Assembly: GCA_964597815.1 (NCBI GenBank)
Contig: CAZQZN010000003.1
Coordinates: 8,519-72,518 of the forward strand
From: an uncultured bacterium
GTDB lineage: Bacteria > Margulisbacteria > WOR-1 > JAKLHX01
Length of the DNA: 64,000 nucleotides
Reading direction: 5' to 3'
Position numbers and translations under genes: made by a program. The notes under the pieces were generated by a model. It searched no databases. It was not told the origin of the DNA and saw only the letters and a list, made by a program, of their open reading frames with translations. Below, piece by piece: positions 30,505 through 56,291 of this stretch (the stretch's first letter is position 1; each line of letters opens with the position of its first letter).

Positions 30505-30523
30505 ACTTAAAATCTCGGGGGAT

Positions 30524-30904
30524 ATGATAGTGAATATGATTATTTCCTTAATACTGGTTGGCTTTATTGCAGGAGTTTTAAGTGGTTTAATGGGAGTTGG
30601 AGGTGGCACAATCACTATCCCTGCTCTTGTTTTTATTATGGGCCTTTCTCAGCATTCTGCACAAGGAATATCTTTGGCTATTATTATACCAACTGCGATG
30701 ATTGGCGCGTATGGATATTATTTGCGAAACAATATTGATTTAAAACGTGCAATTTATTTGTCAATAGGTTCTATTTTTGGAGCATATTTTGGCTCTAATT
30801 TGGCTTGCAATGTTTCTTCATTGTATTTAAAAAGAATTTTTGGAATTTTTGTTTTTATTATCGCAATAAAGGTTTTTATAGATGTATTTTCCAAAAAAAA
30901 GTGA
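30524..30904 (+). CDS. TSUP (TauE/SafE, DUF81) family half-transporter, 4 TM, paralogue of the preceding gene
   Basis: GVGGGTITIPALVFIMGL...QGISLAIIIPTA. 126 aa. Confidence 0.65.
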   Translation: MIVNMIISLILVGFIAGVLSGLMGVGGGTITIPALVFIMGLSQHSAQGISLAIIIPTAMIGAYGYYLRNNIDLKRAIYLSIGSIFGAYFGSNLACNVSSLYLKRIFGIFVFIIAIKVFIDVFSKKK

Positions 30905-33878: not shown

Positions 33879-34826
33879 ATGAAGTATTTTATTTTGGGCG
33901 GTGCGGGATTCATAGGAAGCAATCTTTTAGCGAGATTATTTGAGGAAGAAAAAGATTTTGAAGCTATTGTCTTTGACAATTTGTCTTCCGGGAAAATGGA
34001 ATATATTTCTGATTTCATAAACACTAAAAATTGCCGTTTTATCAACGATGATATTAAAAACTTGGAATCATTGATTAATTCAATGAAGGGAGTTGATATC
34101 GTTTATCATTTTGCATCAAATCCTGATATCTCAAAAGCAGTAAAACAGCCTGATATTGATTTTTGGGAAGGGACTTATTTGACAAATAATATTCTGGAAG
34201 CGATGAGGACAAATGGAGTCAAAAAGCTCCTTTATGCATCTGGAAGCGGCGTATATGGTGAAGTTGGAATGAATAAAGTAAAAGAAGATTATTCTCCTAT
34301 GCTTCCTATATCTACCTACGGTGCTAGCAAATTGGGTTGTGAAGCTCTGATATGTTCATATTCTTATATGTTTGGTATTGATGCTGTTGCTTTTAGATTC
34401 GCAAATGTTGTAGGGCCAAATCAAACACACGGTGTTGCTTATGATTTTATCAGAAAGTTAAAACAAACTTCTTCTCAGCTTGAGATATTGGGCGATGGCA
34501 CTCAAGACAAATCCTATATTTATGTTTCAGATGTTATTGATGCAATGCGATTGGTAGAAAAAAAATATTTAAATGATTTTAATTATTTCAATGTGGCAAC
34601 CGAGGATTCAATTACAGTAAAACAAATTGCGGATATTGTTGTGAATTTAATGGGATTAAAAGATGTAAAATATATTTATAGCGGTGGCAGCCGAGGTTGG
34701 AAGGGCGATGTTCCAAAAATTTATTTGGATTCAACAAAGATCAGAAAGCTCGGCTGGAAAAATAAATTTAACTCTCATGAGGCGATAATGAGATCTGTAA
34801 GAGAAATGCTTGAAAAATCTGCTTGA
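33879..34826 (+). CDS. NAD-dependent epimerase/dehydratase (extended SDR)
   Basis: GGAGFIGSNL Rossmann motif and YGASK (YxxxK). 315 aa. Confidence 0.8.
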   Translation: MKYFILGGAGFIGSNLLARLFEEEKDFEAIVFDNLSSGKMEYISDFINTKNCRFINDDIKNLESLINSMKGVDIVYHFASNPDISKAVKQPDIDFWEGTYLTNNILEAMRTNGVKKLLYASGSGVYGEVGMNKVKEDYSPMLPISTYGASKLGCEALICSYSYMFGIDAVAFRFANVVGPNQTHGVAYDFIRKLKQTSSQLEILGDGTQDKSYIYVSDVIDAMRLVEKKYLNDFNYFNVATEDSITVKQIADIVVNLMGLKDVKYIYSGGSRGWKGDVPKIYLDSTKIRKLGWKNKFNSHEAIMRSVREMLEKSA

Positions 34827-35635
34827 AAGTGGTGTGGTTTGGATTTATGGGATTATTAGATTTATTTGCAAAAAAACAATCTCCCTTGGAAGTCCCTGAT
34901 GAAAATTTGCCTCAGGTTAAAACATGTGTTTATGCAACATGTTTCAATGAATCAGCTATCTTGCCTTTTTTTCTTGAATATTATCTTTCGTTTTGTGATG
35001 AAGTTGTTATATATGACAATTCCTCAACAGATAATTCGGTTGCAATAGTAAATTCTTATCCGCGAACAAGGGTTGTAAGTTATGACACTGGTGAGAATAG
35101 AGATGACATACTTTTAATTATGAAAAACAATATGTGGAAAGAAGCAAGGCCAAGATTTGATTTTGTTATAGTTGTAGATCCTGATGAATTTGTTTATTAT
35201 CCCAATATAAAAAAACTTTTGCGTTATTGCAAAAAGGAAAATATAACTATATTGCACCCAAAAGGATTTAATATGGTAAGCGAAAATTTTCCGCAAAAAG
35301 GCATTTCAATTATTGATCAGATAAAAAATGGTGTGCCAGAGTGGCATTACAGCAAAAAATGCGTATTCAACCCCAATAAAATTAGGGAAATAAATTATAC
35401 TGTTGGTGCTCATAAAGCTGTACCAAGAGGCAAAGTTAAATATTTTTCTTCTCCCGATTTAAAACTTTTGCATTATAGATACATTGGCCTTGAATATTAT
35501 TTGAGCAAAATAAAAAACGCAAGGCAATCCGAAGTCAACCGAAAAAATAATTGGGGGGCTTATTTGGATTATCCGCAAGAATATCATGTGAACAAGTTTA
35601 ATGAAATATTATCAAAAGCCCAAAAGGTAATATAA
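34823..35635 (+). CDS. Glycosyltransferase family 2-like (Glyco_tranf_2_4 type)
   Basis: CFNESAILPFFLEYY...VIYDNSSTDNS and a DPDEF acidic motif. Confidence 0.55.
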   Translation: MKVVWFGFMGLLDLFAKKQSPLEVPDENLPQVKTCVYATCFNESAILPFFLEYYLSFCDEVVIYDNSSTDNSVAIVNSYPRTRVVSYDTGENRDDILLIMKNNMWKEARPRFDFVIVVDPDEFVYYPNIKKLLRYCKKENITILHPKGFNMVSENFPQKGISIIDQIKNGVPEWHYSKKCVFNPNKIREINYTVGAHKAVPRGKVKYFSSPDLKLLHYRYIGLEYYLSKIKNARQSEVNRKNNWGAYLDYPQEYHVNKFNEILSKAQKVI

Positions 35636-35636
35636 A

Positions 35637-36617
35637 GTGATAATAACAAGAAGTCCTTTAAGAATTTCTCTCGGCGGTGGAGGTACTGATTTGCCTTCTT
35701 ATTACAGCCAATATGGTGGTTTTTTGATCGCCGCGGCAATTGATAAATATGTTTATATTACCTTATACAAAATGTTTAATCCCGGTTATTTATTAAAATA
35801 CTCCCAGCTTGAAAGAGTTGAAAAAATAGATGAAATAAAACATCCAATAATAAGAGAATCTCTTAAAATGCTGAATTTTGAAAATGATCATTTGGAAATA
35901 ACAAGCATGGCTGATATTCCTGCAGGTACAGGGCTTGGATCTTCTGGAAGTTTTACCACGGCCCTGTTAAAAGCACTTCATATTTTCAAAAGAAATTTGG
36001 TGCATCCAAAAGAATTGGCTGAGCAGGCATGCGAAATAGAGATAAACAGATTGCAAGAACCAATTGGTAAACAAGATCAATATATTGCCGCTTATGGCGG
36101 GCTTACGTGTTTTACTTTTGAGAGAAACGGGAATGTGCTGGCTGAACCACTAAAAATTTCAAAAGAAACTTTGTTTGATTTGGAAGATAATCTCTTGCTT
36201 TTTTTTACAGGATATTCAAGATCAGCTTCATCAATTTTGAAAGAACAAGATCAGAAAAGTAAAAATAATTCAAAAGAAATGGTTGATAATTTGCACTTTA
36301 TCAAAGAGCTTGGACTAAAAAGCAAAGCTGCACTTGAAAATGGAAATATGCAGGAATTTGGCGATTTGATGAATATCCATTGGGAATATAAGAAAAAAAG
36401 ATCTTCCTCTATGACTAATCCAAAAATAAACGAATGGTATGAAACAGCTTTGAAAAACGGAGCAATTGGCGGGAAACTTATAGGCGCCGGTGGCGGAGGA
36501 TTTTTGATGTTTTATGCTTCTGACAAATCTAAATTAAGGCATGCAATGATGGCTCAAGGTTTGGAAGAGATTAGATTTAGATTTGATTTTGAAGGCACAA
36601 AGGCGGTTGTTCAGTGA
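35637..36617 (+). CDS. hddA: GHMP kinase, probable D-glycero-alpha-D-manno-heptose 7-phosphate kinase
   Basis: GHMP ATP-binding motif PAGTGLGSSGS. Sits alongside hddC, gmhA and gmhB. Confidence 0.7.
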   Translation: MIITRSPLRISLGGGGTDLPSYYSQYGGFLIAAAIDKYVYITLYKMFNPGYLLKYSQLERVEKIDEIKHPIIRESLKMLNFENDHLEITSMADIPAGTGLGSSGSFTTALLKALHIFKRNLVHPKELAEQACEIEINRLQEPIGKQDQYIAAYGGLTCFTFERNGNVLAEPLKISKETLFDLEDNLLLFFTGYSRSASSILKEQDQKSKNNSKEMVDNLHFIKELGLKSKAALENGNMQEFGDLMNIHWEYKKKRSSSMTNPKINEWYETALKNGAIGGKLIGAGGGGFLMFYASDKSKLRHAMMAQGLEEIRFRFDFEGTKAVVQ

Positions 36618-37318
36618 TGCTGCCAAAAGTTGCAATTCTTGCCGGCGGTCTTTCGACTCGCCTTTATCCAGTAACCAAAACAATTCCGAAATCATTGGTG
36701 GAAGTTGATGGGAAACCATTTATTGATTATCAATTAAGAATGTTGGCAGCAAAAAGCATAAAAAGCGTAGTTTTATGTGTTGGTTATTTGGGTGAAATGA
36801 TAGAAGAATATGTTAAAGATGGGGGAAAATATAACCTTCAAGTGGATTATTCTTTTGATGGAGAAAAACTGCTTGGCACTGGTGGTGCGTTAAAAAAAGC
36901 ACTGCCAAAACTATCAGATGATTTTTTTGTGATGTACGGAGATTCTTTTATTGAACCCGAATTTGATAAAATTTATCAGCACTATTTAAATGTTGGCAAA
37001 AAAGCGATTGTTGTTGTTTACAAAAATTTTGATAGGTGGGACAAAAGCAATATCATATATAAAAACGGAATAATTCTCGAATATGATAAGAAGAATAAAT
37101 TGCCCGAAATGGATTACATTGATTGGGGATTATCTTTGTTGAATAAAAAACATTTTGAAAGTATTGAGGAAGGAAAAGAAACTGATCTTTCTGAAATTTT
37201 AAAATCTCTTGCAGATAAGAAGGAACTCTATGGCTATGAGGTTTTTGAAAGATTTTATGAAATTGGTTCATTTAATGGACTAAACGAAGTTAGAAAAAAG
37301 ATAGGAGAGAGAAAATGA
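36614..37318 (+). CDS. hddC: Sugar-1-phosphate nucleotidyltransferase, probable D-glycero-alpha-D-manno-heptose 1-phosphate guanylyltransferase
   Basis: VAILAGGLSTRLYPVTKTIPKSLVEV N-terminal NTP-transferase motif. 234 aa. Confidence 0.7.
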   Translation: MMLPKVAILAGGLSTRLYPVTKTIPKSLVEVDGKPFIDYQLRMLAAKSIKSVVLCVGYLGEMIEEYVKDGGKYNLQVDYSFDGEKLLGTGGALKKALPKLSDDFFVMYGDSFIEPEFDKIYQHYLNVGKKAIVVVYKNFDRWDKSNIIYKNGIILEYDKKNKLPEMDYIDWGLSLLNKKHFESIEEGKETDLSEILKSLADKKELYGYEVFERFYEIGSFNGLNEVRKKIGERK

Positions 37319-37910
37319 AATATATTGATAAGTACTTTGATGCTGCAAACAATTGCTTGATAAAATTGACAAAAAAGATATCAAAAAAATACTTGAAATA
37401 CTTGTAAAAGTCAAAGAAAAAAATGCCCGCCTTTTTATCATAGGTGTTGGGGGCGGTGCGGGCAATGCCGGACATGCAGTAAATGATTTTAGAAAAATTG
37501 CTGGTATAGAGACTTATGCACCTACTGACAATGTTTCAGAATTGACTGCTCGTGCAAATGATGATGGCTGGGACAGCGTTTTTGTAAGCTGGCTAAAAAC
37601 AAGCAAGTTGTCAAAGGATGATTGTGTTTTTGTTTTTTCTGTTGGCGGGGGAGATGCTCAAAGAAAAATAAGCAACAATATAGTTGAAGCACTTAAATAT
37701 GCAAAAGATGTTGGCTCAAAAATTATTGGTATTGTTGGCAGAAATGGCGGTTTTACTGCAGAAGTTGCTGATGCTATTGTTTTAATACCCGTTGTAAATG
37801 AAGACTTGACAACACCATTAACAGAATCTTTTCAAGCGGTTGTTTGGCATCTTTTGGTCTCACATCCTCTTTTAAAATCAAATGAAATGAAATGGGAATC
37901 AATTAAATAA
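37315..37910 (+). CDS. gmhA: Phosphoheptose (sedoheptulose 7-phosphate) isomerase, SIS domain. An apparent 1-nt frameshift separates the first 15 codons from the rest.
   Basis: SIS motif IIGVGGGAGNAGHAVNDF, SVGGGDAQ. The ATG at ~37315 overlaps the hddC stop (ATGA) and encodes MKYIDKYFDAANNCL in the +1 frame relative to the main ORF, which starts at TTG 37353. Confidence 0.75.
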
Positions 37911-37911
37911 A

Positions 37912-38490
37912 ATGAATAAGGCAGTTTTTCTTGACAGAGATGGAGTAATAAATCAGCTTATCGTAAATCCATTGACACAAGAGGTTGAATCTCCGAATAA
38001 TCCCTCTGAATTAGTAATATTACCCGGTGTGATTGAAGCTTTAAAAAAAATCTTAAAGGCTGATTATTTGCTTTTTATTATCTCTAATCAACCAAGTTAT
38101 GCAAAAGGCAAAACCTCTTTGGAAAATCTTTTTGCTGTTCATGATAAGTTGCATTCAGTTTTTGTTGAAAATGGGATACTTTTTTCGGAGTATTATTACT
38201 GTTATCACCATCCTGAAGGGATTATCCCAGAATATTCAATAAAGTGTGATTGCCGAAAACCCGGTCAAAAAAATGTTATTGATGCCATAAAAAAATATAA
38301 TCTTGATGTTAATAAATCTTGGTTTGTTGGCGATCAGGATATGGATATTGAGTGTGGGAAAATTGCTGGCATAAAAACGATTTTAATTGAAAATGAATTG
38401 TCAATTTCAAAAAGAGGCAAAACTAATCCTGATTATTTTGCAAAAAATCTGCCACAAGCAGTTGATATAATATTAAAAAATGAAAGTTAA
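37912..38490 (+). CDS. gmhB: D,D-heptose 1,7-bisphosphate phosphatase (HAD-IIIA)
   Basis: AVFLDRDGVIN, GDQDMD. 192 aa. Confidence 0.8.
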   Translation: MNKAVFLDRDGVINQLIVNPLTQEVESPNNPSELVILPGVIEALKKILKADYLLFIISNQPSYAKGKTSLENLFAVHDKLHSVFVENGILFSEYYYCYHHPEGIIPEYSIKCDCRKPGQKNVIDAIKKYNLDVNKSWFVGDQDMDIECGKIAGIKTILIENELSISKRGKTNPDYFAKNLPQAVDIILKNES

Positions 38491-38501
38491 GGATTAAAAC
38501 A

Positions 38502-39221
38502 ATGAAATTGTTAAAAGATCTGAAAGTAAAAATATTTTCTGATGGTGCAGATATAGATCAAATGAAAGCAGCATATAAGGAAGGCATAATCAAAGGATTT
38601 ACGACCAATCCAACTCTAATGAGAAAGGCCAATGTTTTGGATTATGAAAAATTTGCCAAAGAGCTTTTATCCGAAATAAAAGATCTTCCAATTTCTTTTG
38701 AGGTTTTTTCAGATGATTTTTCTGAAATGGAAAAAGAAGCGCTAAAAATTGCAGGCTGGGGCAAAAATGTCAACATAAAAATTCCAATTACAAATACAAA
38801 AGGGCACTCCTCAATTCCTTTGATAAAAAAACTTTCTGAAAGAGGATTGTTTCTTAATATAACAGCAATTTTGACAATAGAACAAGTAAAGCAAGTTTCT
38901 CAAGCCATTTCCCCAAGTTCCAAAACTATTGTTTCTGTTTTTGCTGGAAGGATAGCGGACACTGGCAGGGATCCCAAGCCGATAATGAAAGAGGCAAAAA
39001 AAATTCTTTCCACCAATGAAAATGCATATCTTTTGTGGGCAAGTTCAAGAGAATTGCTAAATATCTTTGAGGCAGAAGAGTGTGGCTGCGATATAATTAC
39101 GGTAACAAGTGATATTTTGAAAAAACTTCATTTGATCGGCAAAGATTTGTCTGAACTCTCTTTAGATACTGTAAAAATGTTTTATGATGATGCAATGAAG
39201 GCTGGGTACAAAATTTTGTAA
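38502..39221 (+). CDS. Transaldolase / fructose-6-phosphate aldolase family (short TalC/MipB type)
   Basis: FSDGADIDQ, FTTNPTLM, Schiff-base Lys region NVNIKIP. 239 aa. Confidence 0.8.
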   Translation: MKLLKDLKVKIFSDGADIDQMKAAYKEGIIKGFTTNPTLMRKANVLDYEKFAKELLSEIKDLPISFEVFSDDFSEMEKEALKIAGWGKNVNIKIPITNTKGHSSIPLIKKLSERGLFLNITAILTIEQVKQVSQAISPSSKTIVSVFAGRIADTGRDPKPIMKEAKKILSTNENAYLLWASSRELLNIFEAEECGCDIITVTSDILKKLHLIGKDLSELSLDTVKMFYDDAMKAGYKIL

Positions 39222-39267
39222 TTTTGCTATTTCAGAATATGGCTGTTTTATAAATCGGAGACATTTA

Positions 39268-40371
39268 TTGGAAAAAATTGATTTTGCTATTATTGGTGCT
39301 GGGGTTATAGGGCTGTCGATCGCATATAATCTTTCAAAAAACAAATCAGCTGAGATAGTTGTATTTGAAAAAAATGATTCTTTTGGGCAGGGAATATCAA
39401 GCAGAAACAGCGAAGTGATCCACGCTGGAATATATTATCCAATAAATTCATTGAAAAGCCGCCTTTGCATTAATGGCAATAAATTGCTTTATGAGTTTTG
39501 TCAAGAACACAGTATTCCGTTTAATAAATGCGGGAAAATTATCGTTGCTACTAATGGTTCCGAATTAAAACTGTTGGATAAAATTTTTGACAATGCTGTT
39601 GATTGCGGTGCCTCAGGCTTAAAAAAACTTACAGAAAAAGAAATAAAAAACATTGAGCCGGAAGTTTTTGCTGTTGGGGGGATATATTCATCGGAAAGCG
39701 GAATATTAAATACTCATTCCCTCATGCAAAAATTATTTGACTTATCAAAAGATAACGGTGTTATGTATTCTTTTAAGAGTGAAGTTGTTGATATAAAAAG
39801 AAAAGACGATGGTTATTATATAAAATCTCAAAAAGAAGAAATACTTACAAAATTTGTGATAAATTGTGCCGGGTTGCAAAGTGATAAAATAGCAAAGATT
39901 GCTGGATTTGATATTGAAAAACTCGGGTATAAAATTTATTATTGCAAAGGTGATTATTTTGCTGTTTCTTCTTCAAAGGATAAATTGAAACATCTTGTTT
40001 ATCCAGTTCCTCATGAAAAAGGTTATGGTTTGGGAGTACATGCAACTATAGATTTGTCCGGCAGAATAAGGTTAGGCCCGGATGCAAATTATGTTGATTT
40101 AGAAAATTATGAAGTTGATTCAAACAAATTAGATGATTTTTATCAATCTGCCAAAAAATATCTTCCATGGCTAAAAAAAGAATATCTTATGCCCGACACT
40201 TCTGGCATAAGGCCAAAGATTCAAGGTCCTGATGATTCAATTAAGGATTTTATCATAAATGAGGAAAGCGAGAATGGTTTTCCTAATTTTATTAATTTAA
40301 TTGGAATTGAATCTCCGGGATTGACAAGCTGTTTAGCTATTGCCGATCTCGTTGATGAAATTATTGACTGA
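39268..40371 (+). CDS. FAD-dependent oxidoreductase (DAO / L-2-hydroxyglutarate oxidase-like)
   Basis: FAD motif IIGAGVIGLSIAY. TTG start. 367 aa. Confidence 0.7.
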   Translation: MEKIDFAIIGAGVIGLSIAYNLSKNKSAEIVVFEKNDSFGQGISSRNSEVIHAGIYYPINSLKSRLCINGNKLLYEFCQEHSIPFNKCGKIIVATNGSELKLLDKIFDNAVDCGASGLKKLTEKEIKNIEPEVFAVGGIYSSESGILNTHSLMQKLFDLSKDNGVMYSFKSEVVDIKRKDDGYYIKSQKEEILTKFVINCAGLQSDKIAKIAGFDIEKLGYKIYYCKGDYFAVSSSKDKLKHLVYPVPHEKGYGLGVHATIDLSGRIRLGPDANYVDLENYEVDSNKLDDFYQSAKKYLPWLKKEYLMPDTSGIRPKIQGPDDSIKDFIINEESENGFPNFINLIGIESPGLTSCLAIADLVDEIID

Positions 40372-40469
40372 TTATTTAAAAATTTTTAGATTGATTTTGA
40401 TGTGGTAATTGATAATTTTTTATTTGCTTAAATTTTCATAGCGGTGCATATGCCAAACTTATTGTGCGA

Positions 40470-40498
40470 TTGACAACAAATTGCTATATTGCTATAAT
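40470..40498 (+). promoter_or_regulatory. Perfect-consensus sigma70 promoter (TTGACA, 17 nt spacer, TATAAT) at the head of the nonulosonate sub-operon
   Basis: ttgaca at 40470-40475 and tataat at 40493-40498, inside a 175 nt intergenic gap and ~45 nt upstream of the Fe-ADH start. Confidence 0.55.
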
Positions 40499-40546
40499 GT
40501 TCAAAAATTGAACGGTTGTATTTAAATTACTTGGGGTGTTTTTATT

Positions 40547-41704
40547 GTGAGGGATTTTAGATTTTTTTTGTCAACAGATTTGAGGTTTGGTAATAATCAA
40601 TGCTTAAAATTGCCTGATTATATAAAAGATTTAGGTCATTCTAAAATTGCTTTGATTATCGATAATGGAGTCGTAAATAACCAACAGGTCATTAAATGTA
40701 TTAATTCACTAAAAGATAATAATATTTCCTTTGATATTTATGTAAACGAATCTGTTGAGCCAACTTATGATTATCTTGAAGATTTTAGAAAAAGATTCAT
40801 TGGCAAAAGTTATGATTGTTTGGTAGGAATAGGTGGCGGAAGCACTCTCGATCTTACAAAGGGTATTGCCACACTTTTAACTAATGATGGAGAAGCTATA
40901 TCATTTAGAGGATTCCCAAAATTAAAGAACAAACCTCTTCCAATTATTGCAATTCCAACAACTGCTGGGACGGGAAGCGAAGTTACCTATAATGCTGTAT
41001 TTACGGATTCAAAAGAAAAGAAAAAACTCGGAATTAATTCCACATTAAATTTTCCATCTTTAGCTATTATTGATCCTTTGATCTATATTGGAATGCCTGA
41101 AAAAGCTGCAATTTCTTCTGGATGCGATGCTCTTGTCCATACATTAGAAAGTTATGTTCATAAAAACAATACTCCAATTTCAAGAATTTTTTCTAAAGAA
41201 GCATTCCGATTGTTATTCAATAATCTAAACAGGTTATTGGAAGATTTTAACAATACTGATATTTGGGGAGCGCTTTCATTAGGCGCTTATTTAGCAGGTA
41301 TTGCGCTTATAAATGCGGGATCTGGGCCTTCTGGCGCATTTTCTTATCCGCTTGGGGCCGTTTATAAAGTGCCACATGGATACGCTGGCGCAGTTTTTAT
41401 TTCCAAAATTACAAAAATAAATGTTGAAAAAGGATATACTGATTATGCGGATCTTTACGATTTGATAGAAGGAGCTGATAAAACTATTTCAAACGAAGAT
41501 AAAAATTTAAAGTTTGCTGTTGAGTTACAAAATTTAATGGATAAGTTAAAAGTCCCAAGAAATTTAAGGGATTTTGGTTTAAAAAAGCCTGATATTGAAT
41601 TTTTGCTGTCACAATATGATATTTTAAAAGGGGCAATTGATCAAAACCCTATTGAAATAACTAAAGAAGATTGCAAAAAAATGTTTCAAGAATTATTTGA
41701 ATAA
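40547..41704 (+). CDS. Iron-containing (group III) alcohol dehydrogenase family protein
   Basis: GGGSTLDLTKGIA and AIPTTAGTGSEVT, the metal-binding His region. GTG start. Confidence 0.75.
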   Translation: MRDFRFFLSTDLRFGNNQCLKLPDYIKDLGHSKIALIIDNGVVNNQQVIKCINSLKDNNISFDIYVNESVEPTYDYLEDFRKRFIGKSYDCLVGIGGGSTLDLTKGIATLLTNDGEAISFRGFPKLKNKPLPIIAIPTTAGTGSEVTYNAVFTDSKEKKKLGINSTLNFPSLAIIDPLIYIGMPEKAAISSGCDALVHTLESYVHKNNTPISRIFSKEAFRLLFNNLNRLLEDFNNTDIWGALSLGAYLAGIALINAGSGPSGAFSYPLGAVYKVPHGYAGAVFISKITKINVEKGYTDYADLYDLIEGADKTISNEDKNLKFAVELQNLMDKLKVPRNLRDFGLKKPDIEFLLSQYDILKGAIDQNPIEITKEDCKKMFQELFE

Positions 41705-41717
41705 AAGGAGAAAACTT

Positions 41718-42890
41718 ATGCCTGGTTGGGAACTTATAGGGAAAGAAGAAAGAGATGCTGTAAATGAAATATTTGACAATGGGGGAGTTTTATATAGATA
41801 TGGGCTAAATGATAAAAGAAAAAACATTTTTCGTGTGGATATGTTTGAAAATCAGGTTGCAGAAAAAGTTGGCACCAAACATTGTTTATGTGTAAATACT
41901 GGGACAGCGGCTGTAAAGCTAGGATTAATTGGACTTGGTGTTAAAGCCGGCGATGAAGTTATCACTCAGTCTTTTACTTTTATTGCAACAGTTGAAGCAA
42001 TTCTTGAATTGGGAGCAAAGCCAGTAATATGCGAGATTGATAAGACACTTAATATGGATCCAATTGATCTTGAAAGGAAGATTACCAAAAAGACAAAAGC
42101 AATAATTCCAGTACATATGGCTGGAGTTGCAGCAAAAATGGAGGAAATTGTAGAAATTTCAAAGAAGAATGGAATCCCAATATTAGAAGATAGTTGTCAG
42201 GCAATGGGAGGTATGTATAAAGGCAAATATTTAGGAGCCATAGGCGATGCCGGGACATATAGCCTTGATATTGGAAAAGCAATTACAACTGGTGAGGGTG
42301 GGCTTTTGGTAACAAACAATTTTGAGATATTTCGAAAGGCAAAGGAATATTCTGATCATGGACATGAAAACAACCCATCATTGCCGCGTGGAGAAGATAC
42401 AAGAACCACATGGGGATTTAATTATAAAGCTACAGAGTTTGTTGGTGCTGTTGGCATGGCACAGCTGAAAAAACTTGATTACATTATCTCTAAACAAAGA
42501 GAAAATAAAAGAAAAATTAAAGATTCTCTTAAAGATATTAAGAAAATTGAATTTAGAGAGCTTCCTGATGAAAAAGGAGATGCTGGTGATACATTGATAT
42601 TTTTTGTTGAAAACAGAGATAAAGCTTCATTATTCGCAAGAAAACTTATTTCAAAAGGCATAGGCACAAAAAATCTTCCAGACGCTATAAATTGGCATTA
42701 TGCCGGCACTTGGACTCAGGTGTTTTATGATTTTGATGAATACAAAGGTAAGGACTTGGAAAAGGTTTGGTCTCAGTCAACAGATTATTTAAGAAGAGCC
42801 ATTGCTCTTCCAATAATGGTAAATATGAGTGATGAAAGAATTGAACAGGTAATAAATATTGTAAAGGAAATCGCTAATGAGGTTTTGTAA
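41718..42890 (+). CDS. DegT/DnrJ/EryC1/StrS family PLP-dependent sugar aminotransferase
   Basis: PLP-Lys context YSLDIGKAITTGEGG. RBS aaggag. Confidence 0.8.
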   Translation: MPGWELIGKEERDAVNEIFDNGGVLYRYGLNDKRKNIFRVDMFENQVAEKVGTKHCLCVNTGTAAVKLGLIGLGVKAGDEVITQSFTFIATVEAILELGAKPVICEIDKTLNMDPIDLERKITKKTKAIIPVHMAGVAAKMEEIVEISKKNGIPILEDSCQAMGGMYKGKYLGAIGDAGTYSLDIGKAITTGEGGLLVTNNFEIFRKAKEYSDHGHENNPSLPRGEDTRTTWGFNYKATEFVGAVGMAQLKKLDYIISKQRENKRKIKDSLKDIKKIEFRELPDEKGDAGDTLIFFVENRDKASLFARKLISKGIGTKNLPDAINWHYAGTWTQVFYDFDEYKGKDLEKVWSQSTDYLRRAIALPIMVNMSDERIEQVINIVKEIANEVL

Positions 42891-43532
42891 ATGAACAAAT
42901 TGAGTTTTCTTGGTGTTATCCCAGCACGAGGCGGAAGCAAGGGGATACCAAAGAAAAATATTAAAATAATAGCGGGGAAACCTCTTATTGCATGGACAAT
43001 AGAATCAGCAAAAAAATCAAAACTGTTGGATCATTTTGTTGTTTCTACTGAGGATGCTGAGATTGCTCAAATTTCTAGAAGCTATGGTGCGGAAGTGATT
43101 GACAGGCCATTTGAACTTGCAACCGATGAAGCAACAACCATTTCTGTGCTTCAACATGTTCTTACAAAGATTGAATCTGAAAACATTGTTCTGCTTCAGC
43201 CCACTTCTCCTGTTAGAGATATTGATTTGATTGATCAATGCATCAAAAAATTTGACTTTACAAAAGCCGACAATCTTGCAACTGGATTTGTTTGCAAATT
43301 GTTTGAATATGGGGCATATACTCAAAGGAGACAGGACTTAAATGGTTTTTTTCATGATGATGGCAATGTTTATGTAGTAAAATCAGATCTTATCAAAAAA
43401 GGAACTTTGTATGGAGAAAATGTTGAACGCCTTGAAATTTCAAAAGAGCAAAATTTTGAAATTGATGATGAATTTGATTTTTGGTTGAACGAACAAATAC
43501 TGCTAAAAAGGATAAGCGAGGGTAGGCAATAG
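42891..43532 (+). CDS. Acylneuraminate cytidylyltransferase family (CMP-nonulosonate synthetase, NeuA/LegF-like)
   Basis: GVIPARGGSKGIPKKNIKIIAGKPLIAWTIESA. 213 aa. Confidence 0.8.
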   Translation: MNKLSFLGVIPARGGSKGIPKKNIKIIAGKPLIAWTIESAKKSKLLDHFVVSTEDAEIAQISRSYGAEVIDRPFELATDEATTISVLQHVLTKIESENIVLLQPTSPVRDIDLIDQCIKKFDFTKADNLATGFVCKLFEYGAYTQRRQDLNGFFHDDGNVYVVKSDLIKKGTLYGENVERLEISKEQNFEIDDEFDFWLNEQILLKRISEGRQ

Positions 43533-43611
43533 TTGAAAAAATATTTTGGTATCGAGAATGAGGTTGTATGGAATAACGATTGTATTTTTATTTTAGTAGG
43601 AAGAAGTAAGT

Positions 43612-44652
43612 ATGGAAATTAAGATAAACAATAAAAAAATCGGCAAATACAACCCCGTTTTTATCATCGCTGAAGCTGGTGTGAACCATAATGGCAGCTT
43701 AAAATTGGCAATGAAAATGGCTGATGCTGCCAAAGATGCCGGTGCAGATGCGATTAAGTTTCAAACATTTAAAACGGAAGAACTCGTAACCCAAATGGCT
43801 CCAAAAGCGAATTACCAAAAAAAAACTGTACCGGGCAAATCACAATTTGAGATGCTTAAGAACCTTGAATTATCACAAAATGATTTTAAGAAATTATTTG
43901 AGTACTGCAATAGAAAAAAAATTATTTTTTTGTCAACTCCGTTTGATTTTGAAAGTGCTGAATTTTTGAATAAATTAGATGTACCAGCTTTCAAAATTAG
44001 CTCTGGAGATTTAACTAATATTCCTCTCTTATTACAAATAGCAAAATACAAAAAACCAATAATTTTATCAACAGGAATGTCGACGCTTACTGAAATAACA
44101 GATGCTGTCAAAATAATTTATTCTACTGGCAATAAAAAATTGGTTTTGCTTCACTGTACTTCAAACTATCCAACTAAATTTGAAGATGTTAATTTGCGAG
44201 CAATGGATACCATAAGAAAAAATTTCAATACACTAGTTGGATATTCAGATCATACTGAAGGAATTGAGATAGCAATTGCGGCTGTGGCCATGGGGGCAAG
44301 TTTATTGGAAAAACATTTTACTTTGGACAAAACTTTGCCGGGGCCGGATCATAAAGCATCTTTGGAACCACAAGAGTTTATGAAAATGGTTAAAGCCATA
44401 AGGAATGTTGAAATATCTTTTGGAAACGGGATAAAGAAACCGGAAAGGTCTGAAATGGAAATTAGAAGGATAGCTCGCAAAAGTATAGTAGCGGCAGTAA
44501 ATATTCCAAAAGGAACAAGATTAACAAAAAATATGCTTGCCATAAAACGGCCGGGGGCGGGGATTGAGCCAAAGTATTTAGAGCAATTAATCAACCGAAA
44601 AGCTAAGATCAATATTAAGAAAGATCAAGTTTTGACTTGGGATTTGTTATGA
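43612..44652 (+). CDS. Nonulosonic acid synthase (NeuB/LegI/PseI family) with C-terminal SAF domain
   Basis: FIIAEAGVNHNG, HCTSNYP, SAF domain at the C-terminus. Confidence 0.85.
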   Translation: MEIKINNKKIGKYNPVFIIAEAGVNHNGSLKLAMKMADAAKDAGADAIKFQTFKTEELVTQMAPKANYQKKTVPGKSQFEMLKNLELSQNDFKKLFEYCNRKKIIFLSTPFDFESAEFLNKLDVPAFKISSGDLTNIPLLLQIAKYKKPIILSTGMSTLTEITDAVKIIYSTGNKKLVLLHCTSNYPTKFEDVNLRAMDTIRKNFNTLVGYSDHTEGIEIAIAAVAMGASLLEKHFTLDKTLPGPDHKASLEPQEFMKMVKAIRNVEISFGNGIKKPERSEMEIRRIARKSIVAAVNIPKGTRLTKNMLAIKRPGAGIEPKYLEQLINRKAKINIKKDQVLTWDLL

Positions 44653-45797
44653 AACGAAAAGTATGTGTTATTACTGGAACTAGGGCAGATTATGGAATCC
44701 TTAATCCTGTAATGCATGCTATAAGGAATAGTAAAAATTTAAGTTTATACATTATAGCAACATGTATGCATCTTATGAGGGAATTTGGTTTTACGATTAG
44801 AGAAATTGAAAGAGATGGATTTAATATTTATGAAGGAGTAGATATTTCTTATAAGGAAGATAGCGGAGAAGCAATGGCTTATTCTATCGGTAAAGCAACC
44901 TGTGCCTTTTCTAGAAGTCTTGCTAGGCTTAAGCCAGATATTGTAATTGTTTTGGGTGATCGAGGAGAAATGCTTGCTGTTGCAATTGCGTCAAATTATC
45001 TTGGCATTCCTGTTGCTCATATTCATGGGGGCGAGCAATCTGGGCATGTCGATGGGATTTTGCGCCACGCTATTACTAAATTAGCACACATTCATTTTCC
45101 AGCGACAGAAAGCGCAAAAAAAAGAATAATTAGGCTTGGTGAAGATCCTAAAAAAATTTTTACTGTTGGGGCACCTTCATTAGACAGAATTTTAAATGAG
45201 AATTTGCCTAACGAGAAAAATCTTGTGAAAAAATATGGCATTAATAACAAAAAGCCTTTAGCTTTACTTGTTCAGCATCCTGTTCTAACAGAGAGCGAAA
45301 ATGCTGAAAGACAAATGAGAATTTCTTTAGAAGCCATTAAAGGTCTCAAACTACAAACCTTAGTGATTTATCCTAATGCAGATGCTGGTGGAAGACAAAT
45401 GATAAAAGTTATCAAACAATACAACAATTTTTCTTTTATAAGGTCGATTGAAAATATTCCTCACAAAGATTATTTAGGTTTAATGAGAATTGCTTCTGTT
45501 CTTGTTGGTAATTCCAGCAGTGGAATAATTGAAGCTCCTTCTTTTAAGTTGCCTGTGGTAAATATTGGAATAAGGCAAGAAGGCAGAGAGCGAAGCACAA
45601 ATGTTCTTGATGTTCCTCATGATAAAAACGCAATTGTAAGAGCCATCAAGAAAGCACTATATGATAAAAAGTTTAGAGAAAAAGTTAAAAGATGTAAAAA
45701 TCCTTATGGTGATGGGCATGCTGCGGAAAGGATTGTAAAAGTGTTAAGCACTATAAAGTTAGATAAAAATCTTTTACAAAAGCAGATTACATATTAG
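44649..45797 (+). CDS. UDP/GDP-N-acetylglucosamine 2-epimerase, hydrolysing (NeuC/LegG-like)
   Basis: VCVITGTRADYGILNPV, HIHGGE. ATGA overlap with the upstream gene. Confidence 0.8.
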   Translation: MKRKVCVITGTRADYGILNPVMHAIRNSKNLSLYIIATCMHLMREFGFTIREIERDGFNIYEGVDISYKEDSGEAMAYSIGKATCAFSRSLARLKPDIVIVLGDRGEMLAVAIASNYLGIPVAHIHGGEQSGHVDGILRHAITKLAHIHFPATESAKKRIIRLGEDPKKIFTVGAPSLDRILNENLPNEKNLVKKYGINNKKPLALLVQHPVLTESENAERQMRISLEAIKGLKLQTLVIYPNADAGGRQMIKVIKQYNNFSFIRSIENIPHKDYLGLMRIASVLVGNSSSGIIEAPSFKLPVVNIGIRQEGRERSTNVLDVPHDKNAIVRAIKKALYDKKFREKVKRCKNPYGDGHAAERIVKVLSTIKLDKNLLQKQITY

Positions 45798-45807
45798 GAG
45801 TTTAGAA

Positions 45808-46437
45808 ATGTCCAAAATTTTGATTTTTGGAGCGGGAGGGCATGGCAAGGTTGTTTTAGATATTTTGCTTGAATCAGGAGCAGATGTTTTGGGGTTTCTT
45901 GATGATGATATTTCTAAGATTGGTTCTGTTGTTAACGGCAAAAAAATTATTGGAAATTTAGAATATCTAAAAACAAATCGAAATATTGGTTTGGCATTGG
46001 GGTTGGGAAACAATAAAATTAGAGAAAAAGTTTTTAATTTTGCAAGAGAATTAGGAGTTGAAGTTGTAAATGCGATACATCCAAAAGCTGTTGTGTCAAG
46101 AAATGTAAAACTATCAAAAGGTATAGTGATTATGCCCGGTGCAGTAGTGAATACCAATGCTTTTATTGAGGATGGAGTTTGTGTTAATACTTGTGCATCT
46201 GTCGATCATGATTGTTATTTGAAAAAATTTTGTCAGATTTGGCCGGGAGCCAATTTAGCTGGTTCAGTTCAAGTGGGGGGATATTCGTATGTTGGGACCG
46301 GCGCTTCAATTATTCAAAATGTAAAAATTGGCAATAATGTTATTATTGGCGCTGGCGCGGTAGTAATTTCAGATATTCCTGATGGTGTAACAGCTGTTGG
46401 AGTTCCAGCAAGGATAATAAAGGAAAATAATATATGA
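45808..46437 (+). CDS. Hexapeptide-repeat sugar N-acetyltransferase (PglD/NeuD/LegH-like)
   Basis: N-terminal Rossmann-like ILIFGAGGHGKVVLDIL, C-terminal left-handed beta-helix repeats. Confidence 0.8.
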   Translation: MSKILIFGAGGHGKVVLDILLESGADVLGFLDDDISKIGSVVNGKKIIGNLEYLKTNRNIGLALGLGNNKIREKVFNFARELGVEVVNAIHPKAVVSRNVKLSKGIVIMPGAVVNTNAFIEDGVCVNTCASVDHDCYLKKFCQIWPGANLAGSVQVGGYSYVGTGASIIQNVKIGNNVIIGAGAVVISDIPDGVTAVGVPARIIKENNI

Positions 46438-47810
46438 GTAAAAAAAGCATTAAGGAAGCATTAGCAAAAGAGAATTCTTCAATCAAAGAAGTGATGAGGT
46501 TGATTGATCACTCAGGTCTTAGAGTTGCATTTGTTGTTGATAAGCATAATAAACTTTTGGGTGCTGTTAGCGATAGTGAAATCAGAAAAGCAATTCTCAA
46601 GGGTAAGGATGTAAAGGAACCTGTGAAAGGTATTTTAAACCCTAACCCAATTGTATTGATGGAAAAAGATTTGTCGAATGACTATCTTGTTAAAAAAACT
46701 GTTCGAAAATTACTAGAGCGTATGCCCGATAGCAGATTTATTTTAGTTTTGGACGAAAAATGTAGACCAAAGAAGTTGTTGCCTTTGTCTGAATCTCTTT
46801 ATGGCAAGAAAAAAAAGTTAATAAATAATAAAAGTGTGCTTGTAGTAGGTGGAGCTGGATATTTAGGTTCGGTATTAGCAAGAAAACTTCTTGAGAGAGG
46901 ATTTAAAGTTAAAGTTTTGGATATTCTTATGTTTGGGTCTGAATCAATAAAAGAGCTTTTGGGAAAAGAAAACTTTTCTTTAATTGAAGGTGATATGCGA
47001 AATATTTCAACCCTTACTCAAGCATTAATTGATGTTGATGCGGTTGTAAATCTTGCGGCAATTGTTGGAGATCCCGCCTGCAAAGTAACTCCTGAAGCGG
47101 CAATCGAAACCAATTATTTGGCCAACAAAACTTTGGCTGAGGCATGTAAGTATCACCAAATCAATCGATTTGTTTATGCGTCTACGTGTAGCGTTTATGG
47201 ACAAATGGATGGTGATAATGAGCTTACCGAAGAATCTCCATTAAATCCTGTGTCTTTATATGCCAGATCAAAGATTCAATCTGAAGAAGGGATATTAAGT
47301 TTGGTTGATGATAATTTTTCTCCGACAATTTTGAGGATGAGCACTTTGTACGGATATTCTCCAAGGATGCGTTTTGATTTAGTAGTTAACACAATGACCA
47401 AAACTGCGGTAATAGATAAAAGAATATATGTACACGGTGGCGGAAAACAATGGAGGCCACTTTTAAATGTGAAAGATGCGGCAAATGCTTTTATCAAATG
47501 TTTAGAAGCACCAATAAACGAAATAAGGGGGGAAGTATTCAATGTTGGTTCAAGCGCTCAAAATTATCAAATAATTGAAATTGCCAACATTGTAAAAAAA
47601 TGTATTCCCTATGCAGAAATTATCAAGGAAGGAGAATCAACAGATCCTAGAAATTACTTTGTTTCATTTTCTAAAATTGAGAAAAAACTTAACTATAAAG
47701 TTGAAAGAGGATTGGAAGAATCAATTTTGGAAATTAAAAACGCAATTGAACAAGGCATAATAAGTAATGTAAACGACTCAAAATATTACAATGTGGAGTA
47801 TAACCAATGA
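46434..47810 (+). CDS. CBS-domain-fused NAD-dependent sugar-nucleotide dehydratase/epimerase (LegB/PseB-like catalytic domain)
   Basis: N-terminal ~115 aa CBS pair, then SDR Rossmann VLVVGGAGYLGS and catalytic YARSK. Confidence 0.75.
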   Translation: MSKKSIKEALAKENSSIKEVMRLIDHSGLRVAFVVDKHNKLLGAVSDSEIRKAILKGKDVKEPVKGILNPNPIVLMEKDLSNDYLVKKTVRKLLERMPDSRFILVLDEKCRPKKLLPLSESLYGKKKKLINNKSVLVVGGAGYLGSVLARKLLERGFKVKVLDILMFGSESIKELLGKENFSLIEGDMRNISTLTQALIDVDAVVNLAAIVGDPACKVTPEAAIETNYLANKTLAEACKYHQINRFVYASTCSVYGQMDGDNELTEESPLNPVSLYARSKIQSEEGILSLVDDNFSPTILRMSTLYGYSPRMRFDLVVNTMTKTAVIDKRIYVHGGGKQWRPLLNVKDAANAFIKCLEAPINEIRGEVFNVGSSAQNYQIIEIANIVKKCIPYAEIIKEGESTDPRNYFVSFSKIEKKLNYKVERGLEESILEIKNAIEQGIISNVNDSKYYNVEYNQ

Positions 47811-49003
47811 AAAAATATTTAAGAAATAAAGACAGAATTCCAGCAATATTTGGTGGCACATCTTTTTTTAACAAAGTCATTCCTATAACTGAACCAACTA
47901 TTTCATCTATTTCTGCTTTAAAGAAGAAATATGAAGAGGTTTTAAGGAGCCGGATGATAACTAATTCTAAATATGTAAAAGAGTTTGAAAAAAATGTTGC
48001 AGAATATCTTGGTGTTAAATACGCAGTAGCAGTAAGCAGCTGTACAAGCGGGTTGATGCTTATAATAAAATCTTTAGAGTTAAAAGGCGAAGTTATACTT
48101 CCAAGTTTTACTTTTCATGCTACTGCTCATTCTGTTGTTTGGAATGGATTAAAACCTATTTTTGTTGATTGTGATCCAAAAACTTATAACATTGATCCAA
48201 AAGAAGTAGAAAAAGCTATAACAAAAAAAACGTCAGCAATTTTAGCAGTTCACCTTTTTGGAAATCCAGCAAATACTGAAGATTTGGAAAGGATCGCTAA
48301 AAAACACAATTTGAAACTTATTTTTGATGCTGCACATGCTTTTGGAGCAAAAAGGAGAGGGAAAAATGTTGGAGGTTTTGGTGACGCGGAATCTTTTAGT
48401 CTTAGCCCAACAAAACTTTTAACATCTGGAGAAGGAGGTATTATTGCAACAAATAATAAGGATTTGGCTGAAAAGTTAAAAGTTGCAAGAAATTATGGTG
48501 ATTCTGGGAATTATGACTGCGAATTTACTGGATTTAACGCAAGGATGAGTGAGTTTAACGCTATTTTGGGAATTGAGACATTAAGAATGTTAGAAAAAAA
48601 CGTAAATAGAAGGAACAAAATTGCAAATATTTATAAAAGCGAATTGTCAAAAATTCCCGGTATTTCTTTCCAATACATTTCACCAAGTGACAGAAGCACA
48701 TTTAAGGATTTTTCGATTTATATTGATGAGAATAAATTTGGAATGACGAGAGATGAATTGTATGATGCGGTTTTAAAGGAGAACATAGTTGTGAAGAAGT
48801 ATTTTTATCCTCCAGTACATTTGCAAAAGGCATATAAAAATATTAAAACATTACATAAATTGGACAATACCGAAAATATAACTAGCAGAGTTTTTAGTTT
48901 GCCTCTATATTCTCATATTGATGAAAAAACAGTAAGAAACATTTGTTTTGTTATCAAAAACATTTACGAATACAACTTGAATATAAAACGACTCAGAAAA
49001 TGA
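47807..49003 (+). CDS. DegT/DnrJ/EryC1/StrS family aminotransferase (LegC/PseC-like)
   Basis: FSLSPTKLLTSGEGG PLP-Lys motif. Confidence 0.8.
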   Translation: MKKYLRNKDRIPAIFGGTSFFNKVIPITEPTISSISALKKKYEEVLRSRMITNSKYVKEFEKNVAEYLGVKYAVAVSSCTSGLMLIIKSLELKGEVILPSFTFHATAHSVVWNGLKPIFVDCDPKTYNIDPKEVEKAITKKTSAILAVHLFGNPANTEDLERIAKKHNLKLIFDAAHAFGAKRRGKNVGGFGDAESFSLSPTKLLTSGEGGIIATNNKDLAEKLKVARNYGDSGNYDCEFTGFNARMSEFNAILGIETLRMLEKNVNRRNKIANIYKSELSKIPGISFQYISPSDRSTFKDFSIYIDENKFGMTRDELYDAVLKENIVVKKYFYPPVHLQKAYKNIKTLHKLDNTENITSRVFSLPLYSHIDEKTVRNICFVIKNIYEYNLNIKRLRK

Positions 49004-50181: not shown

Positions 50182-50325
50182 GAAATGTAATTGTTTTTGA
50201 ATATGTTGATTTTTTAAATTTGTCGTTATTGTTTATTTTTGTGATTATAATAACTTTCAAAATTGCCAAGATAGTTTTTAGCTGTTTACTTTTGTATTGT
50301 TTAAAAAATATAAAAGGGGTTTTAA

Positions 50326-53611: not shown

Positions 53612-53627
53612 AAAGAGGAGAAGAAAA

Positions 53628-55384: not shown

Positions 55385-55385
55385 A

Positions 55386-56288: not shown

Positions 56289-56291
56289 AAA

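Follow-up and report, generated by a model that had tools for sequence, protein, structure and literature searches.

A KdnA-family aminotransferase and an unusual iron alcohol dehydrogenase at the head of a nonulosonate operon: probable exchange of a hydroxyl for an amino group on a nine-carbon sugar

Why should an operon for a sialic acid-like sugar begin with the genes for an alcohol dehydrogenase and an aminotransferase? The question is raised by a contig from an uncultured bacterium (CAZQZN010000003.1), of which a stretch of 64,000 nucleotides, hereafter referred to as the window, was analyzed. On its forward strand, positions 40547 to 41704 encode a group III iron-containing alcohol dehydrogenase (Fe-ADH) and positions 41718 to 42890 a pyridoxal phosphate (PLP)-dependent aminotransferase of the DegT family. 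In Shewanella oneidensis, KdnA and KdnB turn free 3-deoxy-D-manno-octulosonate (Kdo) into Kdo8N, 8-amino-3,8-dideoxy-D-manno-octulosonate, before its activation with cytidine monophosphate, CMP (PMC4402001). An earlier reading, made from the letters of the window without database searches (the sequence-only reading), had proposed a KdnB/KdnA-like logic for the present pair, by which a terminal hydroxymethyl group would be oxidized and then transaminated to yield an undescribed amino-ulosonic acid. On the basis of homology and gene order, the two enzymes probably do swap a hydroxyl group of a nine-carbon sugar for an amino group.

The aminotransferase contains 390 amino acid residues and matches the Pfam family DegT_DnrJ_EryC1 (PF01041) with 284 bits. 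Although its reading frame offers an alternative TTG start upstream at 41697, the likely start is the ATG at 41718, 13 nt past the stop codon of the Fe-ADH gene, because homologues of 389 to 391 residues begin with MPGFELIG and one database protein that is 100% identical has 390 residues. When compared with all solved structures, the enzyme matched KdnA from S. oneidensis (5k8b) with 292 bits, the next chain scoring 159, and the two proteins are 43% identical over 335 aligned residues. The lysine that forms the Schiff base with PLP is kept, with SLDIGK aligning with SFDSVK of KdnA, and it does not vary among 16 homologues. The 120 best matches in the database, which are 66-84% identical to the window protein, belong to the Margulisiibacteriota, Omnitrophota, Micrarchaeota, and Woesearchaeota, and many of them carry the JGI label "Kdo8N transaminase". 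A neighbor-joining tree was built from the window protein, 81 proteins from related loci, and KdnA, with a second DegT protein of the window serving as the outgroup. KdnA nests within the family, beside clades that are devoid of NeuB, and sequences from Bathyarchaeia (32-41% identity, with neither an ADH nor a NeuB gene nearby) fall outside of it. The aminotransferase is, by these comparisons, a member of the KdnA family, and the kinship with KdnA that the sequence-only reading had supposed is borne out.

The Fe-ADH, with a GTG start and 385 residues, matches the Pfam families Fe-ADH (143 bits, cutoff 31) and ADH_Fe_C (114 bits). These scores, together with the 13-nt spacing, confirm that an Fe-ADH gene directly precedes a DegT aminotransferase gene, but the notion that the dehydrogenase itself is KdnB-like did not hold. 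Among chains in the PDB, it scores 173 bits with the 1,3-propanediol oxidoreductase DhaT (3bfj), approximately 150 with the lactaldehyde reductase FucO and the methanol dehydrogenases, and 73 with KdnB (5k8c). KdnB belongs to Fe-ADH subfamily cd08184, and the window enzyme, judged from these scores, is not its orthologue. The dinucleotide-binding motif GIGGGS is kept as are the Asp/His/His metal ligands. In the motif GPSGAFSYPLG, a glycine aligns with the metal-binding histidine that is His 263 in FucO and His 267 in DhaT, and a tyrosine aligns with His 267 of FucO. This Gly/Tyr pattern is common to every window-type Fe-ADH homologue examined, whereas KdnB-type and DhaT-like enzymes that partner related aminotransferases retain the metal-ligand histidine, the DhaT-like ones also having a tyrosine at the second position. 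The homologues, 47-76% identical among the best database matches listed, come from the same phyla as those of the aminotransferase, in many cases from contigs equal in length to the ones with aminotransferase matches, and bear generic names only. Identity with 3-dehydroquinate synthase (DHQS), glycerol dehydrogenase, or glycerol-1-phosphate dehydrogenase, which the sequence-only reading had weighed, was rejected, as the respective models score only 25-37 bits; the enzyme groups with DhaT, FucO, and the methanol dehydrogenases.

Is the pairing of the two genes more than an accident of this contig? A scan for the aminotransferase in one genome per species returned at least 595 relatives, from which the 80 best loci were retained. 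These include Spirochaetota, Omnitrophota, Methanoregula, Methanolobus psychrotolerans, Bacteroidota, Desulfobacterota-like lineages, Marinimicrobia, Prochlorococcus, SAR11, and Ilumatobacteraceae; individual related loci are designated below by numbers such as L089. For loci with an aminotransferase at least 42% identical to that of the window, an Fe-ADH gene lies directly upstream on the same strand in 49 of the 54 that extend far enough upstream, a repetition of order that puts the adjacency beyond chance, and NeuB is encoded within 9 kb of the aminotransferase in 46 of 56. Seven distinct contexts of close homologues tell the same story. The ADH gene is immediately upstream in all seven, and in six of them the order ADH, aminotransferase, CTP_transf_3, NeuB is contiguous (Omnitrophota, Micrarchaeota, Woesearchaeota, and unclassified metagenome contigs), the seventh having a CTP_transf_3-NeuB fusion 3.7 kb away.

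The occupant of the ADH slot is not always of the same kind. In the 49 loci it is of the window type in 21, a true KdnB type in 21, and canonical DhaT-like in 7. In every clade-A locus, a window-type enzyme is encoded right before the aminotransferase. The true KdnB-type partners, from Bacteroidota and Actinomycetota, reach 332 bits (L026) and 286 bits (L057) against KdnB, and the DhaT-like partner in L016 scores 273 bits against DhaT. As read from these sequences, the slot is a case of non-orthologous displacement within one module, which argues that the three types of ADH are functionally equivalent partners of the aminotransferase. That true KdnB-type enzymes fill this very slot elsewhere would support a KdnB/KdnA-like logic. 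The proposal of the sequence-only reading thus stands with respect to the KdnA-family aminotransferase and an ADH placed where KdnB would be, and falls with respect to the window ADH being like KdnB. We consider it quite likely that the pair aminates an ulosonic acid made by this operon.

Variations on the module were also observed. A compact arrangement of Fe-ADH, aminotransferase, a GT2-like protein of approximately 220 residues, NeuB, and CTP_transf_3 occurs in L028, L032, and L036-L059, the hosts being Marinimicrobia, Actinomycetota, SAR11, and Prochlorococcus; NeuC and other precursor genes are not nearby. Gene fusions were found as well, namely CTP_transf_3 with NeuB (561 residues, L007 14911-16596), a B12-binding radical SAM protein with NeuB (876 residues, L003/L004 11804-14434), and CTP_transf_3 with the aminotransferase (611 residues, L005 2322-4157).

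The next issue is which sugar the pair would act upon, and here the neighboring genes are instructive. A sigma-70-type promoter-like site is predicted ahead of the pair at 40470 to 40498 on the forward strand, with TTGACA and TATAAT separated by 17 nt and an extended -10 TG. It is the sole 12/12 consensus match in the 12 kb from 39000 to 51000, and the perfect-consensus promoter noted in the sequence-only reading is accordingly real as a sequence; the match falls short of proving promoter function. The GC content of the window is approximately 33%, and the nearest named relatives of both pair genes in a protein database search belong to Candidatus Margulisiibacteriota. Gene order confirms that the pair lies directly upstream of the genes for a CMP-nonulosonate synthetase, NeuB, and NeuC. 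The genes behind the pair are on the same strand and tightly packed, with intergenic gaps of -16 to 79 nt.

The synthetase gene (42891-43532) begins at the base that immediately follows the stop codon of the aminotransferase gene. Its product is a NeuA/PseF-like cytidylyltransferase (Pfam CTP_transf_3, 86 bits) that scores 135 bits against the PseF model TIGR03584, which is under the cutoff of 206, and at most 61 bits against the KdsB models. Next come the genes for a NeuB-type nonulosonate synthase (43612-44652; Pfam NeuB, 344 bits, plus SAF), which would condense phosphoenolpyruvate (PEP) with a 2-acetamido-mannose derivative, a NeuC-type hydrolyzing 2-epimerase for nucleoside diphosphate (NDP)-linked N-acetylglucosamine (GlcNAc; 44637-45797), and a NeuD/PglD-type N-acetyltransferase (45808-46437; Pfam PglD_N and Hexapep). 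The models met by these three proteins, TIGR03569 (490 bits, cutoff 400), TIGR03568 (462 bits, cutoff 236), and TIGR03570 (222 bits, cutoff 161), do not distinguish enzymes for legionaminic acid from those for neuraminic acid. Given the NeuA-like and NeuB neighbors, the substrate of the pair should be a nine-carbon sugar. Farther downstream are the genes for a CBS domain fused to an extended short-chain dehydrogenase/reductase (46434-47810; CBS-SDR) and, overlapping it by 4 nt, for the second DegT aminotransferase (47807-49003; Pfam DegT, 366 bits). The latter resembles the sugar C4 aminotransferases DesI (346 bits, cutoff 650), PseC (264 bits), and LegC (214 bits, cutoff 420), all scores being under the cutoffs. 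A conserved protein of 412 residues without a Pfam or NCBIfam match (48943-50181) is a candidate nonulosonate transferase; its homologues, 28-32% identical, are encoded beside nonulosonate genes in L006, L010, L013, L018, L061, L065, and L089. It is followed by a polysaccharide flippase-like membrane protein (50326-51867; Pfam Polysacc_synt, 50 bits) with homologues in L027, L038, L065, and L089.

Which hydroxyl group of such a sugar would be replaced? Legionaminic and pseudaminic acids are 9-deoxy sugars, and therefore the question of the carbon becomes whether this operon deoxygenates C6 of the hexose precursor. Legionaminic acid, which the sequence-only reading had suggested as a substrate, does not fit, as it has no terminal hydroxymethyl group to oxidize. 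The operon does share much with the CMP-legionaminic acid pathway of Campylobacter jejuni (LegB, C, H, G, I, and F): homologues of LegI/NeuB, LegG/NeuC, and LegH/PglD, a C4 aminotransferase, and a CMP-synthetase. It differs in three respects, however. The CBS-SDR is no match for the 4,6-dehydratase LegB (99 bits against TIGR04180, cutoff 475), it carries an N-terminal CBS domain, and the ADH and KdnA-like genes are extra at the head of the operon.

The closest solved chain to the CBS-SDR is 6vo6 (176 bits, 36.5% identity over 326 residues), which is tentatively taken here to be Cj1427. C4-epimerases come next, and structures of RmlB-type dTDP-glucose 4,6-dehydratases score approximately 79 bits. 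At the acid/base position that reads T-D-E in RmlB, the CBS-SDR and all of its orthologues have T/S-C-S (the window motif being S-T-C-S-V-Y-G) and 6vo6 has T-N-S; the GalE and RmlB sequences in this alignment only fixed the register. The window SDR and 6vo6 are thus alike in being without the carboxylates of 4,6-dehydration. SDRs unrelated to the CBS-SDR in other modules, such as that of Methanoregula, have S-A-A at this position. A six-frame scan of the 64-kb window revealed no T-D-E, T-D-K, or T-S-E dehydratase motif, and in the same scan of 89 related loci the only matches were to genes lying outside of the nonulosonate module, of the rml type or otherwise (L001, L031, and L089). Cj1427 oxidizes C4 of GDP-D-glycero-D-manno-heptose without dehydration, and its bound NADH is recycled as alpha-ketoglutarate is converted to L-2-hydroxyglutarate (PMC10680097). 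The window SDR differs from Cj1427 in its CBS domain, its nonulosonate operon, and its coupling to an aminotransferase, Cj1427 being coupled to epimerases and reductases.

An FAD-dependent oxidoreductase resembling L-2-hydroxyglutarate oxidase (266 bits, cutoff 299) is encoded at 39268-40371, upstream of the promoter-like site. It could regenerate alpha-ketoglutarate if the CBS-SDR were to run a Cj1427-like ping-pong reaction yielding L-2-hydroxyglutarate. As a conserved partner of the module it was rejected, a homologue being present in none of the related loci.

Another view of the carbon in question is provided by L089, a locus on a 3.86-Mb contig from the Bacteroidota. Its module encodes a KdnB-type ADH, the aminotransferase, NeuA-like and NeuB-like proteins, and NeuC (387 bits, above cutoff), with no further sugar-modifying gene. 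This would be a plain route of the N-acetylneuraminic acid (Neu5Ac) type, the product of which bears a C9 hydroxymethyl group. Because of the missing dehydratase motif, the relatives of the SDR, and L089, a sugar that keeps its C9 hydroxyl and is aminated there, in the same manner as Kdo at C8, is favored. The conversion of a terminal hydroxymethyl to an aminomethyl group, as put forward in the sequence-only reading, has thereby gained indirect support from the lack of a 4,6-dehydratase motif in the window and related modules, with C9 as the predicted carbon.

The following route can be proposed. The CBS-SDR would oxidize C4 of NDP-GlcNAc, the 6-hydroxyl being kept, the second DegT enzyme would aminate that carbon, and the NeuD/PglD-like enzyme would acetylate the new C4 amine. 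Hydrolysis and epimerization by NeuC would give 2,4-diacetamido-2,4-dideoxy-mannose, and NeuB would condense it with PEP to 5,7-diacetamido-3,5,7-trideoxy-nonulosonate (350.132 Da) with the C9 hydroxyl retained. The Fe-ADH would then oxidize C9 to the aldehyde, which the KdnA-like aminotransferase would convert to the 9-amine. The predicted free sugar, 5,7-diacetamido-9-amino-3,5,7,9-tetradeoxy-nonulosonate (C13H23N3O8, 349.149 Da), would finally be activated with CMP by the adjacent cytidylyltransferase. Alternatively, oxidation and amination might take place on the free hexose before the NeuB step, leading to the same product. We lean toward the pair being an oxidize-then-transaminate module for the NeuB product, that is, Kdo8N chemistry with another Fe-ADH in the role of KdnB. 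On balance, and with similarly modest confidence, we also favor the C9 hydroxymethyl group being the one that is kept, oxidized, and transaminated before CMP activation, giving a 5,7,9-triamino nonulosonate.

Several observations weigh against this assignment. The argument for C4 oxidation without dehydration is built on a motif and an identity of 36.5%, so that the CBS-SDR may be an atypical dehydratase, and the identification of 6vo6 with Cj1427 is tentative. KdnB is but a distant relative of the window ADH, which, having glycine where one of four canonical metal ligands is expected, may not catalyze the reaction of an ordinary dehydrogenase. The aminotransferase tree is a neighbor-joining tree without support values. 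The related loci are nearly all from metagenome-assembled or single-cell genomes, with one isolate among them, Methanolobus psychrotolerans YSF-03 (L061, NZ_MBKP01000059.1). The literature searched yielded no natural 9-amino nonulosonate and no 5,7-diamino nonulosonate keeping its C9 hydroxyl, and the only natural nonulosonate seen to bear an additional amine is an 8-amino-9-deoxy sugar.

That last sugar points to the best of the alternatives, namely that C8 is aminated in a 9-deoxy sugar of the legionaminic type to form a 5,7,8-triamino-3,5,7,8,9-pentadeoxy-nonulosonate (333.154 Da as the diacetyl form). The CBS-SDR would in this case be an atypical 4,6-dehydratase, and the methyl ketone formed by the ADH from the secondary C8 hydroxyl would be the substrate of the aminotransferase. 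Such a sugar, an 8-amino-3,5,7,8,9-pentadeoxy-nonulosonate with a third amino group, does occur in the O-antigen of Tenacibaculum (formerly Flexibacter) maritimum, and as of 2022 its biosynthetic genes were reported as unknown. The set of NeuA, NeuB, NeuC, NeuD, SDR, and aminotransferase has the composition of a legionaminic acid cassette, and the three-ligand metal site of the ADH recalls those of glycerol dehydrogenase and DHQS. Both of these enzymes oxidize secondary alcohols. Yet the dehydratase motif that this chemistry calls for is missing from the window and the related modules, the LegB model is far under its cutoff, KdnB-type enzymes, which oxidize primary alcohols, occupy the same slot in other loci, and the L089 module has no route to a 9-deoxy sugar. 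Nor could the pair be placed in T. maritimum: the paper on its O-antigen cluster names neither an Fe-ADH nor NeuB, and Tenacibaculum is absent from the best 80 genome loci and from 120 Bacteroidota-centered protein matches, no dedicated genome search having been made. Amination at C8 is accordingly regarded as unlikely, though it deserves to be kept in mind. An origin of the window or the pair in the O-antigen pathway of T. maritimum, suspected from the 8-amino nonulosonate and the 2-hydroxyglutarate of that organism and from a similar GC content, is unsupported, though not refuted; the window itself belongs to a Margulisiibacteriota-like genome.

A different possibility is that the pair belongs to a genuine Kdo8N-type system, acting on Kdo itself or on the 2-keto-3-deoxy acid of a downstream aldolase rather than on the NeuB product. 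Like the KdnB/KdnA system, the window combines genes for an Fe-ADH-family oxidase, a DegT-type aminotransferase, and a cytidylyltransferase, and the homology to KdnA fits as well. Moreover, the window encodes a pyruvate aldolase and a KdsB-subfamily cytidylyltransferase at 51867-56288 (302 bits, cutoff 255), this combination recurs with the pair in L089, and clades without NeuB exist in which KdsB stands beside the aminotransferase. The window differs from the Shewanella system, however, both in its oxidase, which is DhaT/FucO-like with an altered metal site, and in its neighbors. The aminotransferase gene abuts that for the NeuA/PseF-like protein and NeuB follows, which is not the KdsB-type partner without NeuB that marks a Kdo8N system; the KdsB-like gene lies approximately 10.7 kb downstream, and most loci with the pair have NeuB and are without the HpcH/KdsB-like module. 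The type of cytidylyltransferase appears to track the sugar. NeuB-linked clades, that of the window included, have a NeuA/PseF-like enzyme beside the aminotransferase, and the NeuB-less clades (delta-proteobacteria-like lineages and Synergistales) have a KdsB-like one, as would be expected for genuine Kdo8N modules. Kdo as the substrate, suggested in the sequence-only reading, is on these grounds improbable.

In L015-L023 and L068, a DhaT-like Fe-ADH gene stands upstream of the KdnA-like gene with a KdsB-like gene adjacent (downstream, or upstream in L068) and without NeuB. These loci look like Kdo8N modules outside of Shewanella with a non-KdnB oxidase. The second sugar-acid module of the window extends from 51867 to 58451 and encodes an HpcH/HpaI-family pyruvate aldolase, two methyltransferases, the KdsB-subfamily cytidylyltransferase (model NF009905), a D-2-hydroxyacid dehydrogenase, an SDR, an HAD phosphatase, and a cyclase-family protein. 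Judged from its content, the module may produce a further CMP-activated 2-keto-3-deoxy acid, with an aldolase in place of KdsA for the synthesis. The core of this module is also present beside nonulosonate genes in L089 (HpcH 41%, KdsB-like 65%, dehydrogenase 34%, and HAD 43% identity). Among loci with the pair it is rare, and NeuB is nearly constant.

Rather than modifying the sugar directly, the pair might make a small substituent, such as an amino alcohol or one of a hydroxy acid/amino acid pair comparable to 4-hydroxybutyrate and 4-aminobutyrate, that is later placed on the nonulosonate. Nonulosonates often bear unusual N-acyl groups. The ADH does match the models for 4-hydroxybutyrate, sulfoacetaldehyde, choline, and phosphonoacetaldehyde dehydrogenases, all far under the cutoffs, but the aminotransferase is of the sugar-type DegT kind, and its nearest characterized relative has a free ulosonic acid as the substrate. 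The partners conserved with the pair are the cytidylyltransferase and NeuB, with neither a ligase nor an acyltransferase co-varying, and among the ADH homologues is a natural fusion of Fe-ADH with CTP_transf_3 (P0359, 624 residues). We judge this explanation to be a shade less probable still than a Kdo8N system. Finally, a chance adjacency or inactive genes, the ADH being a generic alcohol/aldehyde reductase, might be imagined from the loss of one canonical metal ligand but is very improbable given that the gene order recurs as described above in many phyla and both prokaryotic domains, that the aminotransferase and the ADH are as conserved as they are among their best database homologues listed (66-84% and 47-76% identity, respectively), and that the odd ligand pattern is itself conserved across the ADH subfamily.

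How new would amination at C9 of a NeuB product be? In the literature searched, no link between Fe-ADH/KdnA-type genes and NeuB clusters was found and the module is undescribed, so that the undescribed amino-ulosonic acid of the sequence-only reading holds to that extent. Shewanella has been described as the only source of Kdo8N (PMC4402001), whereas the family of the window aminotransferase is spread over many phyla and the Archaea. This distribution suggests that Kdo8N is a minor branch of a large enzyme family mostly serving NeuB products. Such a replacement of a hydroxyl by an amino group has so far been reported only for the eight-carbon Kdo in Shewanella, and the same module appears to be common in uncultured bacteria and archaea.

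Two known kinds of nonulosonate with free or additional amines invite comparison. The T. maritimum sugar has its amine at C8 of a 9-deoxy chain, and the dehydratase motif needed for such a chain is not present in the window. In Candidatus Kuenenia stuttgartiensis, free-amine and N-formyl nonulosonates have been linked to a PIG-L deacetylase and a formyltransferase (SugarBase preprint, 2026). Kuenenia, like the host of the window, is an uncultured-type bacterium with a legionaminic acid-like cluster, and its nonulosonate is positively charged. The amine arises there, however, through N-deacetylation of a 5- or 7-acetamido group and not by replacement of a hydroxyl, an ADH/KdnA-like pair is unreported, and the window contains neither a PIG-L protein nor a formyltransferase. 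Genes for both of the latter are inserted among those for NeuB, NeuC, and the acetyltransferase in L005, L006, and L008.

Nonulosonic acids cap cell surfaces, where the charge and substituents of these sugars influence how phages, immune lectins, and antibodies recognize them, and an amine in place of a hydroxyl would make an acidic sugar a zwitterion. Members of the aminotransferase family appear for the most part to accompany NeuB, in archaea as well as in lineages that abound in the sea and in fresh water. A broader proposal, which we put forward tentatively and with somewhat less than even confidence, is that KdnA-type aminotransferases with interchangeable Fe-ADHs constitute a widespread, unrecognized route to omega-amino, zwitterionic, sialic acid-like sugars, the product varying with the clade. 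If this were true, sugars of the Neu5Ac9N type would be expected in Bacteroidota and Methanolobus, related sugars in SAR11, Prochlorococcus, Marinimicrobia, and freshwater Actinomycetota, and the 5,7,9-triamino nonulosonate in the clade of the window (Margulisiibacteriota, Omnitrophota, and DPANN archaea). The last of these would be built via a non-dehydrating C4 oxidase, so that the 5,7-diamino nonulosonate retaining O9 would also be a new natural intermediate. The predicted mass signature is a shift of 0.984 Da on known nonulosonate masses. The pair provides candidate genes for the unexplained amino-nonulosonate of T. maritimum, a fish pathogen, and a possible source of enzymes for 9-amino sialic acid analogues. 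To our knowledge, such analogues are presently made chemically.

Other features of the window deserve mention. A nucleotide-heptose-like gene set at 33879-39221 encodes an SDR, a glycosyltransferase, a GHMP kinase, a nucleotidyltransferase, a GmhA-like SIS protein, a GmhB-like HAD protein, and a member of the transaldolase/FSA family. At 30184-30904, two adjacent open reading frames of 106 and 126 residues match halves of the TauE/SafE sulfite-exporter profile, its C-terminal half being found in the first frame and its N-terminal half in the second. Lastly, a protein of 590 residues without a family match is followed at 60197-62664 by two adjacent DegT genes, the products of which contain 441 residues (a partial profile match) and 381 residues (406 bits), bringing the total number of DegT enzymes in the window to at least four.

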